A stretch of DNA of 64,000 bases from Gemmatimonadota bacterium. Lineage in GTDB: Bacteria > Gemmatimonadota > Gemmatimonadetes > Longimicrobiales > Gaopeijiaceae. The translations under genes were made by a program, and so were the position numbers. The notes under the pieces are model-generated. The model was not told where the DNA came from and ran no database searches. It saw nothing but the letters and a program-made list of their open reading frames with translations. The stretch spans positions 1 to 64,000 of the forward strand of contig JBDHLD010000014.1 in assembly GCA_039586035.1 (NCBI GenBank). The letters run 5' to 3'. Shown in pieces: positions 24,301-26,772 of the stretch. Within the stretch, counting starts at the first letter, position 1. Each line of letters starts with the position of its first letter.

Positions 24301-24880
24301 CGTCTTCCAGGCGTTGGAGATCCAGCTCCGCCCGCTCCAACCGCCTCGTCGCCGCCTTCCTTCGGTCCTTGTATTTGCCGATTCCGGCCGCCTCCTCGAA
24401 GAGGCCCCGGCGTTCATCGGCCCGGTCCGAGAGGATCGCGTCGATCATGCGGTTCTCGATGACCGCGTAGGCGTTGGCGCCCAGGCCGGTGTCACGGCAG
24501 AGCTCGACGACGTCCTTCAAGCGACAGTGGGAGCGGTTGATGGAGTACTCGCTGCCCCCGTCCCGGAACACGGTCCGACCGATCTCCACCTCCTCGAACG
24601 GGACCGGGAGCAGCCCGTCTTCGTTGCTGACCGTCATGACCACGGACCCGCGGTTCACGGGCCGACGGTTCACGGTCCCCTGGAAGATGGCTTCCTCCAT
24701 CTTGGCGCCCCTGATGGCGGTCGGGCGCTGCTCTCCCAGTACCCAGCGGATGGCGTCGCTGATGTTGGACTTGCCGCAACCGTTGGGGCCCACGATGGCG
24801 GTGATGCCCTCGTGGAAATCGATATCCGTGCGGTCTGCGAAGGACTTGAAGCCGTTGACCCTCAGGGAGCGGAGCTTCAT
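21368..24880 (-). CDS. smc: Chromosome segregation protein SMC
   Basis: 1170 aa; N-terminal Walker A (GPNGCGKSN), long coiled coils, a hinge, and a C-terminal signature/Walker B ([36 protein letters not shown]). Confidence 0.95.
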   Translation of the reverse strand: [1170 protein letters not shown]

Positions 24881-26772
24881 CGGAGGGGGCGGCCCATCCG
24901 TTCGGTGAGGATCGCGCCAGTCAGGCCCGATTCGATCAGCAGGGTCTGCAGATGACTCGCCTCGCGGGCGTTGGCGTAGGCGCCGGCGTACACCCGGTAC
25001 CGCAGCGGACCCTCCGGCGGCCCGTATTCCGCGAAGTAGGCCGGGATCCCAGCGTCCTCGGCCTGGCCTCTGCGAGCCATGGCCTCGTCGAGCGAGTCGT
25101 ACTCGCCCAGGAGAAAGGCGACGCGGGTGGAACGGACGATGGCCCCCCTCGCGACGGCGGTGCCGATGTAGCCGGCCAACTCTGCGCGGATGGCCTCGGC
25201 GTGGCCTCTCGACTCGGCGGGGCCGGCCACGACCCGGTAGTAGTTGGCGCCCCCCACCTGTACGGGCACCAGCACGAACTGGAGCGACGGGAAGCGCGCC
25301 TGAAGGTCCCTCGACTGTTCCTGGGCGGCGGTTGCCCGCTCATGGGCGTTGATGGTGAGACCGAAGCGCATGATGGCGCTGGGCGACAGGGCGCCCGTGG
25401 CCGATGGCGTGCCTTCCTCCGTCGCGTCCTCTCTGGTCGCGGTGGGGACCCCGCCTTCATCGACGGGCGTGGGATCGTCGGGCTCGCCACCGGTGCCCCC
25501 GGGCACGGCGCCCTCTGAAGTCGTGGGCTCGCTCACTTCCGCCGCGTCGCCTGCGTCCGGCGTAGCTGCCGCCATGTCCGCGTCAGCCGACCGTGCCGCG
25601 GACAGCTCGACCGGTGCGTCGTCCGCGGGATCGCTACTCGAGACGGCTGGCGCGTCGCCCCGGCCCATCAGAGCGATGAGCGTCGCCACGACGATGACGA
25701 TCAATGCCAACCAGAGGAGGAGCCGCCGCCGAGAGCTAGGGGCCGGCTCCGATTCGATGGAAAGCAGGCCTTCGAACTCGGCGGACAGCTCTGTATCCGG
25801 GCCGCTGGGAGCCTCTGGCCCGGACGCTCCGGGTGCTCCCGCGGCTTCGTCGGCGAGCTCTTCGGCAGCGGTTTCGTCCCAAAACGGATCCAGCTCTGCC
25901 CCCGCGCTCCCACCGGCACCGGGCTCCTCCTCCCCCGTGGGGAGACCCTCGGCAAGGGGTCCGCTGGCGAACGCCGTGCCCTCGTCGACGGCAGGGAGTG
26001 CGCCGGCCGCCGGCCCCTCGGTCAGACTCGGGGCTCCGGGATCGTGGGTGGCCTCGAGGCTCTCGGCGAGACGGACCTCCAGGCTGGCGACGTCCGTGGC
26101 ATCGAGGTCCGCTCCGTCGCCTCCCAGATCCACCGCGGTGCCCGCCACCGATGCCGGGCTGGCCGCGCCAGCTTGCGCTACGTCCAGGGGAGAGACTACC
26201 GCATGCACCGGAGTGGACGACTCCACGAGCGCCTCGGTGGGCGCGGCAGCCCCGGCCAGAAGCACCACGGCGTCGGCACGTTCGAGCAAGGCGGTGGCAC
26301 CCTCGAGCGAAAGCGGTACGTGGAGGAGCACCAGCGTGCCCGACTTCCGGTAGCCGCCCAGGATGGTTTCCCAGCGAGGGTTCTCGAGGATCTTCGAGGA
26401 ATCTCCGACCACCGTGCCCGAAGGCACGAACAGGAAGGTGCCCTCGCGGACCCCCCGGGAGACACGGCGAGCGGAGGCTCCGAACTCGAAGACGTCGCTG
26501 ATGCCTTCGCCCGGCGTGACGCCGAGCTCGTTGGGGAGCCAGGAACCCTCCAGGCTCAGGTCGATCAGGACTGTGCGGGCGCCACGGCCGGCTGCCGCCT
26601 CGGCGACCCTCGCGGACACGCTGGCCGCCCAGGGGCCGTCTTCAGCCGTCGGAGCCACCGCCATGGCCAACACGCGAACGGGGCCGTCGCCGTCCAGCAG
26701 AGCCGAGATCGAATCCGGCACGTCGTCCGTATCCGGGTCGAAGGCCTGCCAGACGGGTGTCTCCAGTGTCAT
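24877..26772 (-). CDS. Hypothetical protein: degenerate ParA/MinD-like N-domain + low-complexity linker + TM helix + two C-terminal SPOR (septal peptidoglycan-binding) domains
   Basis: N-terminus (VRVLAMAVAP...RTVLIDLSLEGSWLP...LVLLHVP...ADAVVLLAG) has a MinD/ParA-like fold pattern but no Walker A GKS/T. TM segment LLLWLALIVIVVATLIALMG. Two SPOR-like repeats (QFVLVPVQVGGANYYRVVAGP...; YRVYAGAYANAREASHLQTLL). Its stop overlaps the smc start by 4 nt. Confidence 0.65.
   Translation of the reverse strand: MTLETPVWQAFDPDTDDVPDSISALLDGDGPVRVLAMAVAPTAEDGPWAASVSARVAEAAAGRGARTVLIDLSLEGSWLPNELGVTPGEGISDVFEFGASARRVSRGVREGTFLFVPSGTVVGDSSKILENPRWETILGGYRKSGTLVLLHVPLSLEGATALLERADAVVLLAGAAAPTEALVESSTPVHAVVSPLDVAQAGAASPASVAGTAVDLGGDGADLDATDVASLEVRLAESLEATHDPGAPSLTEGPAAGALPAVDEGTAFASGPLAEGLPTGEEEPGAGGSAGAELDPFWDETAAEELADEAAGAPGASGPEAPSGPDTELSAEFEGLLSIESEPAPSSRRRLLLWLALIVIVVATLIALMGRGDAPAVSSSDPADDAPVELSAARSADADMAAATPDAGDAAEVSEPTTSEGAVPGGTGGEPDDPTPVDEGGVPTATREDATEEGTPSATGALSPSAIMRFGLTINAHERATAAQEQSRDLQARFPSLQFVLVPVQVGGANYYRVVAGPAESRGHAEAIRAELAGYIGTAVARGAIVRSTRVAFLLGEYDSLDEAMARRGQAEDAGIPAYFAEYGPPEGPLRYRVYAGAYANAREASHLQTLLIESGLTGAILTERMGRPLR

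Follow-up and report, generated by a model that had tools for sequence, protein, structure and literature searches.

Gene X, its product and the smc junction

The stretch examined, hereafter called the window, comprises positions 1 to 64,000 of contig JBDHLD010000014.1 (Gemmatimonadota bacterium, NCBI GenBank assembly GCA_039586035.1). On its minus strand lies an open reading frame (ORF), here named gene X, that starts with an ATG at 26772, ends with a TGA at 24879-24877 and is followed directly by smc. The encoded protein X (631 amino acids, aa) consists of five parts: a folded N-terminal domain (residues 1-195), a linker, a single transmembrane (TM) helix (351-369), a second linker and two SPOR domains. 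The motifs and nearest relatives of the N-terminal domain mark it as a bacterial tyrosine (BY) pseudokinase, a domain homologous to that of active BY-kinases but catalytically dead. At the junction the coding strand reads ...CCC CTC CGA TGA AGC TCC..., and four nucleotides (nt), ATGA at 24880-24877, are common to the TGA of gene X and the ATG of smc. A preliminary description made from the letters without database searches (the sequence-only reading) had proposed an N-terminal domain, an Ala/Pro/Glu-rich linker, one TM helix and two SPOR domains, with the stop codon overlapping the smc start. Every element so described was present and the downstream ORF does encode SMC; the strand, minus, had been omitted.

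The G+C content at third codon positions (GC3) of gene X was 0.82, typical of genes in this 69%-GC window. Gene X is evidently a real gene and not a chance ORF, because 194 cluster representatives matched its N-domain at E<=1e-30. In public collections the exact protein sequence is recorded as 'hypothetical protein', and a 277-aa fragment in IMG is labelled 'cell division septation protein DedD'. The window was closest to the Gemmatimonadota metagenome-assembled genome (MAG) M8-62_Bin_229, with which its SMC is 92% identical.

Family size and forms

Word-index searches for homologues, run with either the full protein or a 51-sequence profile, returned 3 and 5 proteins, respectively, and the family became visible only with an exhaustive HMMER search. 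This used a four-sequence profile and recovered 782 representatives at E<=1e-10, as against the 194 at E<=1e-30 mentioned above. Exactly one strong TM helix followed the domain in 121 of the 153 best representatives, and a C-terminal double-SPOR block was present in 80 of them.

For genomic context 31 related loci were collected, and X, rsfS, rplI and smc were mapped in them by tblastn and ORF tracing. A complete X gene with enough downstream sequence was available in 22 loci including the window; these are the informative loci. The locus searches were run with tighter sub-alignments, and the sample covers only the 'EGISD' and 'EGVSD' sub-branches. Sixteen of the 22 complete X genes encoded SPOR domains and six did not. 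The SPOR-less short forms (L003-5, L007, L011 and L012) were 261-565 aa long and ended 9-30 aa past the TM helix; they are complete genes and not fragments, since smc directly follows. A tandem SPOR block, predicted to be periplasmic, is found in roughly half to three-quarters of the family. All five matches in the species-representative genome set were Gemmatimonadota MAGs, and the one named NCBI protein of the family is assigned to 'Gemmatimonadales bacterium'.

The N-terminal domain

No model for the N-domain was found in Pfam or NCBIfam; the only match of the window protein above noise was to Wzc, at 12 bits. Family-wide, the best Pfam results were sub-threshold matches to CbiA in 10 of 51 members. 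A single-sequence PDB search with protein X gave the BY-kinases Wzc and BceF (E about 1e-3). With the 51-sequence profile (A2), the top 15 PDB matches were all BY-kinase catalytic domains (Wzc 2.4e-10, BceF 6e-10, CapA/B 5e-8, Etk 3e-7, VpsO 7.5e-6), and ParA/MinD-type proteins were far behind (FleN 0.04-0.14). The listed scores of the N-domain were 20.7 with VpsO, 19.5 with CapAB, 19.1 with Wzc and 18.6 with BceF; after a gap came ParA (14.7), MinD (14.0), BcsQ (13.5), FlhG (12.9), FleN (12.8) and MipZ (8.6). Alignments to CapAB and Wzc covered 187-190 of 200 residues, and the AlphaFold2 (AF2) model was of high confidence. The core is preceded by an N-terminal beta-strand (W8-x-x-F11-D12-P13) and a helix. 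The domain has the fold of a BY-kinase catalytic domain and is homologous to it; ParA and MinD are not its nearest relatives. The MinD/ParA-like character proposed by the sequence-only reading holds at the level of the superfamily and fails at the level of the branch, which the profile matches and the listed scores place with the BY-kinases. As a whole, the interpretation given in that reading is supported in part.

The motifs that define BY-kinases (PMC9800525, PMC12004946) were tested in 152-153 family N-domains, using a column profile of 152. At the P-loop position protein X reads APTAEDGPW. The Trp at the end of this loop (Trp48) was conserved in 98% of the family, Walker A (GK[ST]) was present in 0 of 153 members, and 148 of 152 had no Lys anywhere in the loop. 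Protein X has two Lys in total (127 and 143), neither at the P-loop position. The Walker-B Asp was replaced by Tyr, Phe or His in 143 of 152 members (Y77, F36 and H30 at column 151). In Walker A' (hhhhDxDxR) the first Asp was kept in 150 of 152 and the second in 53 of 152 (Ser in the window), with Glu, Asp or another residue at the Arg position. The E-x2-R-x2-R oligomerisation motif was found in 1 of 153 members. The Tyr cluster is lacking (in 117 of 148 members the 100 aa that follow the domain contain no Tyr), and the deviant Walker A of ParA/MinD (K-G-G-x-G-K-[ST]) is not found in the X family. The absence of a Walker-A Lys that had been reported from the letters alone was thereby borne out in the whole family. 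With Walker A, the Walker-B Asp and the A' Arg all lost, the accompanying suggestion of a pseudo-ATPase is also upheld at the level of sequence.

A different set of positions was near-invariant: W48 (98%), D71 (98%), H80 (92%), G90 and D93 (100%), S100 (99%) and W134 (99%), together with L79-H80, E89-G90, G98, R103, G119-T120, R133-W134 and P153. The non-catalytic BY-kinase motifs G-[LV]-S-[DE], P-x-[ND]-P-x-E-[LV]-L and HPR[FW] were also kept. Since the catalytic motifs are lost and the family's own positions are near-invariant, the N-domain is best described as a pseudoenzyme retained for binding, not one in decay, and the alignment makes purifying selection on the motifs peculiar to the family apparent. 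Nearly all N-domains (99% of members) were acidic, with a median net charge of -11, and ParA-like DNA binding by the domain was rejected on this charge.

The window protein and its closest relative (P0001) depart from the family at two positions. His80 (92% in the family) is Pro (nt 26533-26535), and Asn87 (80% in the family) is also Pro (nt 26512-26514). The two substitutions may be the sign of a sub-lineage whose binding surface has changed.

Membrane topology

The cytoplasmic linker had no match in Pfam. Its residues 201-350 comprise 21% Ala, 14% Gly, 13% Glu and 10% Pro, with a net charge of -27; in the family the linker is acidic and 0-540 aa long (median 105). A motif E-[FY]-E-G-L-P before the TM helix was considered as a family feature and rejected, as it occurs only in the window and in P0001, P0002, P0004 and P0012, a near clade. 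The TM helix (LLLWLALIVIVVATLIALM) has a mean Kyte-Doolittle value of 3.07. An N-in/C-out orientation is predicted because basic residues (RRR) precede the helix and net negative sequence trails it. Over the family the mean charge was +2.85 before the helix and -0.58 after it, and this bias was seen in 92% of members. Protein X is therefore predicted to be a bitopic inner-membrane protein with the N-domain in the cytoplasm and the SPOR domains in the periplasm, the arrangement that the sequence-only reading had proposed to check by topology.

A motif W-[LF]-G-[LYIV]-[VI]-x-[IV]-P was seen where the TM helix meets the periplasm in P0003, P0013, P0017, P0043, P0049, P0059, P0082, the L008 protein and others. 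Its conservation points to a specific contact, in the membrane or at its surface, with another membrane protein. The window protein reads LIALMGRGDAP at this position and does not carry the motif.

SPOR domains

Pfam PF05036 matched two stretches of protein X (E 3e-12 for the whole protein). In separate scans, residues 468-549 scored 31.1 bits and residues 550-631 scored 26.4 bits against a cut-off of 21, so that each of the two proposed SPOR domains passes the Pfam gathering score on its own. Among the SPOR blocks of the family, 26 of 27 matched PF05036. The family SPOR profile found the SPOR domains of CwlC, RlpA, FtsN and DamX in the PDB as weak matches (E 0.004-1), in a search topped by spurious summed matches to designed pentatricopeptide (PPR) repeats. 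A phmmer search of the PDB with the SPOR block found nothing, and a single-sequence AF2 model of the block was unusable (predicted local distance difference test score, pLDDT, 55).

In the structure of RlpA, denuded glycan is recognized mainly by backbone contacts, with side-chain contributions from one highly conserved beta1 Gln and a basic patch (PMC6895207). No Gln-rich beta1 column corresponding to this residue (RlpA Q270, FtsN Q251; PMC6895207) was found in either repeat in 80 members. The candidate positions in the window protein, placed through the Pfam register and the beta1 pattern, are Thr473 (or His477; the register is uncertain) in the first repeat and Leu554 in the second. Each repeat retains a basic sheet residue within a y-R-V-x-x-G-P motif: R513, where 67% of the family have Arg, and R593, where 77% do. 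We take these to be the equivalents of FtsN R285 and RlpA R309, the FtsN register being based on the FtsN sequence together with PMC6895207. From these features, binding of the SPOR tandem to septal peptidoglycan is plausible.

Conservation of the smc linkage and gene order

The gene smc lay directly downstream of X in 20 of the 22 informative loci, with N-domain identities of X ranging from 35% to 84%. A 4-nt overlap (ATGA or GTGA) joined the two genes in 18 of these 20, including SPOR-less short forms (L003-5, L007 and L011); the remaining two had gaps of 13 and 94 nt. Lack of conservation next to smc had been named beforehand as an outcome that would count against the sequence-only reading, and the linkage was instead found to be nearly universal in the sample. 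There were two exceptions. In L002 an X gene of 1018 aa is followed by a convergent DUF2911 gene. In L020 a cut-off X is followed by a sharp fall in GC; it is still counted as an exception. The GC content of this contig (Ga0209536_100021330) falls from about 0.6 to about 0.45 from about 1370 onward, with few long ORFs, and the assembly is probably chimeric. A further locus, L031, first taken as a counter-example to the linkage, proved to be a fragment at 0.43x coverage.

A second, independent scan found rsfS and rplI immediately upstream of X in 17 of 17 loci with upstream sequence. The block order of the window, in which the DUF2232 gene encodes a membrane protein, was the same in related loci. 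The gap before X was 91-193 nt in 11 of 12 measured loci and 895 nt in L008. The latter, from a Gemmatimonadales MAG, has the loosest arrangement: an extra 239-aa ORF (4302-5021) lies between rsfS and X, the X-smc gap is the one of 94 nt, and its X has an unusually Gly-rich TM helix. As the junction before X is the sole sizeable gap in the block of the window, X and smc may form their own transcription unit. Scans of the rsfS-X gap and its surroundings for sigma-70-type promoters, terminators and Rfam families found nothing.

Close to X in the window lie rplI, rsfS, smc, genes for an S8 peptidase and DAHP synthase, and dnaX. The genes scanned around X in the window included none for polysaccharide export, and neither did those of the smc-linked loci where gene calls were available. 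Protein X had no Pfam or NCBIfam match to ScpA or ScpB at E<=0.1.

Wzc fusions and possible origin of the domain

Two proteins, P0102 (969 aa) and P0167 (977 aa; independent, 73% identical), were complete Wzc-type co-polymerases with an X-type domain attached. Their Wzc part has two TM helices, GNVR, Walker A (EEGKTT), A' (VLLVDADMRRP), Walker B (MVIVDAP) and a Tyr cluster (PYRRYFSPYGYG), and the X-type domain follows this cluster immediately. This domain carries P-x-W-x-x-F-D-P, a dead P-loop ending in Trp, the H80 motif, HDRW and LLYLP. Both genes lie in canonical Wza-Wzc-sugar transferase-GT2-Wzx-Wzy clusters, and the nearest Wzc relatives (56-62% identity) have no extra domain. An unannotated gene of 204-240 aa directly follows each fusion.

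A neighbour-joining tree with kinase domains as its root placed the fused copies as sister to all 150 other X-domains and slightly closer to the kinases (0.909 compared with 0.936). The tree has no bootstrap support and the basal position is for that reason suggestive only. It is suggested that the X-domain descends from a second kinase domain of a Wzc-type co-polymerase, formed by duplication and since degenerated. The tandem of kinase and pseudokinase in these fusions appears to be undescribed. It recalls the eukaryotic Janus kinases (JAKs). A possibility raised by the fusions is that present-day X might still dock onto a BY-kinase.

Feature coordinates and other genes

Coordinates of the features are collected in Table 1.

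Table 1. Positions of the features discussed, given for the window except in the last two rows, which refer to loci L032 and L033.
Feature	Position	Strand	Basis
Gene X, whole (BY-pseudokinase domain, linker, TM, linker, two SPOR; stop included)	24877-26772	minus	ORF and translation, GC3
Residues 1-195, cytoplasmic BY-kinase-like pseudo-NTPase domain	26188-26772	minus	
Residues 39-48 (VAPTAEDGPW), degenerate P-loop, no Gly-Lys-Ser/Thr, ends in Trp48	26629-26658	minus	column profile
Residues 148-154 (VLLHVPL), former Walker-B strand, Asp replaced by His151, Pro153 kept	26311-26331	minus	column profile
Residues 196-350, acidic low-complexity cytoplasmic linker ending in juxtamembrane RRR	25723-26187	minus	composition
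Residues 351-369 (LLLWLALIVIVVATLIALM), predicted single TM helix, N-in/C-out	25666-25722	minus	Kyte-Doolittle, flanking charges
Residues 370-466, acidic Ala/Pro/Asp/Gly-rich periplasmic linker	25375-25665	minus	composition
Residues 467-548, SPOR domain 1	25129-25374	minus	Pfam, family column profile
Residues 549-631, SPOR domain 2	24880-25128	minus	Pfam
ATGA, stop of X (TGA) overlapping start of smc (ATG)	24877-24880	minus	sequence
smc, 1170 aa	21368-24880	minus	TIGR02168 SMC_prok_B 904 bits; Pfam SMC_N, SMC_hinge
rsfS-X gap, 177 nt, only sizeable gap in block	26773-26949	minus	
rsfS, upstream block	26950-27321	minus	Pfam, NCBIfam
rplI, upstream block	27334-27789	minus	Pfam, NCBIfam
DUF2232 gene, upstream block	27812-28750	minus	Pfam, NCBIfam
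rpsF::rpsR, upstream block	28757-29410	minus	Pfam, NCBIfam
Wzc::X fusion gene, L032	3204-6113		
Wzc::X fusion gene, L033	1114-4047		

Several other genes were recorded. Ribosomal proteins S6 and S18 are normally encoded by separate genes, and their products pair on the ribosome. Here they formed one ORF of 214-218 aa, in the window and in L003 (3829-4473), L011 (119-766) and L012 (5448-6104), with Pfam Ribosomal_S6 at residues 4-92 and Ribosomal_S18 at residues 162-208. An S8 subtilase gene with an FlgD_ig region, resembling type IX secretion system (T9SS) C-terminal regions, lies at 19348-21399 (minus) and starts 32 nt inside the 3' end of smc; a metallo-beta-lactamase-fold gene holds this slot in L004, L011 and L012. 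A small Ras-superfamily GTPase, possibly of MglA type, is encoded at 12335-12913 (minus; Pfam Arf 1.6e-6, Gtr1/RagA 2e-4) and adjoins a CDP-alcohol phosphatidyltransferase gene. Two ORFs with coding-like GC3, 37757-39550 (minus, 597 aa) and 29563-30447 (plus, 294 aa), had no Pfam match at the thresholds used.

Proposed role of protein X

Protein X is tentatively proposed to be a non-enzymatic scaffold of the membrane or septum that would, with SMC, tie chromosome organization or segregation to the membrane or the division site. We place the chance of this reading a little below even. X would act as a scaffold or tether and not as an enzyme. Its pseudokinase domain, whose own surface and former active-site residues are strongly conserved, would bind a cytoplasmic partner, and the TM helix would hold that domain to the inner membrane by a long, acidic tether. 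The tandem SPOR domains of the long forms would fix X to peptidoglycan, most plausibly to amidase-processed septal glycan. X and SMC would be made from one coupled translation unit, with or without SPOR domains. The X-smc translation unit is the most conserved feature besides the N-domain. Smc-ScpAB, or a factor acting with it, is ranked first as partner because this unit is highly conserved and persists when the SPOR domains are lost; it is the most likely candidate, at somewhat under an even chance.

The nearest functional precedent is CpsC/CpsD with ParB and RocS in Streptococcus pneumoniae, where a protein of BY-kinase fold at the division site influences segregation. The BY-kinase CpsD is septal and has a modulating effect on ParB and on chromosome segregation (PMC4574921), and a preprint on RocS (10.1101/359943) offers a further precedent of this kind. 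CpsD, however, is an active autokinase encoded in the capsule locus that signals by phosphorylation, whereas X is predicted from its motifs to be unable to phosphorylate, and its link is one of gene order, to smc, and not an experimental one to ParB.

Several points weigh against the scaffold proposal. The link between X and SMC is one of gene order only. The whole block rpsF::rpsR-DUF2232-rplI-rsfS-X-smc is conserved, and the adjacency may be that of a frozen housekeeping operon; rplI and rsfS are not known to act together with SMC. Overlaps of the ATGA type, moreover, occur commonly where the genomic GC content is high. In one clade (P0002 and probably P0004, about 1000 aa) X does not adjoin smc. 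Septal targeting is an assumption, as the beta1 Gln through which denuded glycan is contacted is missing from both SPOR repeats, and the taxonomic range rests on a handful of labelled genomes. Finally, the fusions with Wzc and the precedent of EcpK and HfsB point to a BY-kinase or polysaccharide co-polymerase as a possible alternative partner.

A narrower form of the scaffold proposal would make X a lineage-specific condensin accessory, a tethered pseudokinase that binds Smc-ScpAB (or ParB) and that the SPOR forms fix to the septum. This is unlikely as judged at present. If it were true, Gemmatimonadota would have a physical coupling of the chromosome to the division site, and in X, for the first time, a domain derived from a BY-kinase would have moved from polysaccharide export to a role in chromosome biology.

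Alternative explanations

The alternative that survives best, with an appreciable though minor chance, is that X is an accessory of the divisome or of peptidoglycan synthesis, of the type of DamX, FtsN and DedD. The SPOR domains would then bring X to the septum, the N-domain would contact proteins of FtsA/FtsZ type, and the position next to smc would be operon history. X shares with the Escherichia coli SPOR division proteins a bitopic N-in topology and C-terminal SPOR, and with DamX also a sizeable cytoplasmic domain. The IMG label on the fragment, the presence of unrelated housekeeping genes in the conserved block and the post-TM motif W-[LF]-G-x-[VI]-x-[IV]-P of many members, which suggests contact with a membrane protein, are consistent with such a role. 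So is the absence of Min, MipZ, PomZ and MapZ from Gemmatimonadota, where novel division factors are to be expected (PMC11271474). In contrast to DamX, FtsN and DedD, X has a tandem of SPOR domains, both without the canonical Gln, and its cytoplasmic domain is an unrelated, folded 195-aa pseudokinase. The SPOR domains are also dispensable in part of the family: the six SPOR-less X genes keep the pseudokinase domain and the coupling to smc, so the conserved core of X is not the septum-binding part. The tight 4-nt coupling, moreover, is particular to the X-smc junction, the other junctions of the block being gapped.

It is rather improbable that X is the partner of a BY-kinase or polysaccharide co-polymerase, docking onto or inserting into a Wzc-type ring or binding its Tyr tail, with the SPOR domains placing the export of capsule or exopolysaccharide at the septum, as happens with CpsC/CpsD in pneumococcus. 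The only described BY pseudokinases, EcpK of Myxococcus xanthus and HfsB of Caulobacter, are proposed to be phosphorylation-independent scaffolds of polysaccharide co-polymerases of the PCP-2 type (PMC12004946). They have a BY-kinase fold without Walker A, A', B and Tyr cluster (PMC12004946), a definition that X fits. The basal X-type domain fused after the Wzc Tyr cluster in two independent proteins is a hint of the Rosetta-stone type, and the septal CpsD communicates with ParB (PMC4574921). However, EcpK and HfsB are small and soluble, dock onto PCP-2 proteins and have their genes in polysaccharide clusters, whereas X is membrane-anchored, carries SPOR domains and lies in an smc operon near which no polysaccharide-export gene was seen. 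The alignment to CapAB and Wzc also suggests that the N-terminal strand and helix, which in EcpK are supplied by the tail of the partner, are already part of X. The Wzc fusion is a rarity, seen in 2 clusters among >150 representatives, and may be a trace of ancestry and not of present-day partnership. The catalytic domains of Wzc, Etk, VpsO, BceF and CapB are the closest relatives of the N-domain in sequence and structure, and X keeps their non-catalytic motifs and the first A' Asp. It lacks, in comparison, the Walker-A Lys, the Walker-B Asp, the A' Arg, the Tyr cluster and the ring-forming E-x2-R-x2-R motif, and its genomic context is not a polysaccharide cluster. Its membrane orientation is reversed as well, the TM helix being C-terminal to the domain and not N-terminal as in every PCP-2.

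The literal form of the sequence-only reading, in which a SPOR-anchored pseudo-ATPase of ParA/MinD type acts on DNA or positions cargo, is very improbable and largely refuted, the BY-kinases being closer to the N-domain by every measure. ParA, MinD, FlhG and MipZ need a deviant Walker A and ATP-driven dimerisation. With neither this motif nor its signature Lys, X would be incapable of the ATP-dependent dimerisation on which ParA/MinD function is based, and the acidity of the domain argues against non-specific DNA binding.

That X is non-functional, a chance ORF of a high-GC genome or a decaying remnant, could be argued from its long low-complexity regions and lack of catalytic motifs and is refuted by conservation, namely the invariant family-specific residues across the 194 representatives and the conserved synteny and overlap, together with the high-confidence AF2 model and coding-typical GC3.

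Significance

The kinds of domain in X, BY pseudokinase and SPOR, are already known. The family itself, its reversed topology, its fusion to tandem SPOR domains, its restriction to Gemmatimonadota (as sampled) and its almost universal translational coupling to smc appear to be undescribed in the searchable literature and in public annotation. Literature searches on SPOR with Wzc or tyrosine kinases, and on Gemmatimonadota with SMC or chromosome segregation, found no paper, and the term 'SPOR domain' was absent from the SMC/condensin literature found in a search for a link to SPOR.

Gemmatimonadota are abundant in soils and sediments and are barely studied. How segregation and septation are coordinated beyond a few model organisms is an open question, and we know of no dedicated membrane or cell-wall tether of bacterial Smc-ScpAB. 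The phylum is without every known system for placing the division site (PMC11271474), and in it X is a concrete candidate for coordination of envelope and chromosome. Whatever the function of X, the family extends the newly recognized class of BY pseudokinases beyond polysaccharide export, and its N-domain defines a domain family that has no Pfam model and is 'hypothetical' in public annotation. A Wzc with a second, dead kinase domain would be a plausible evolutionary intermediate in its origin.

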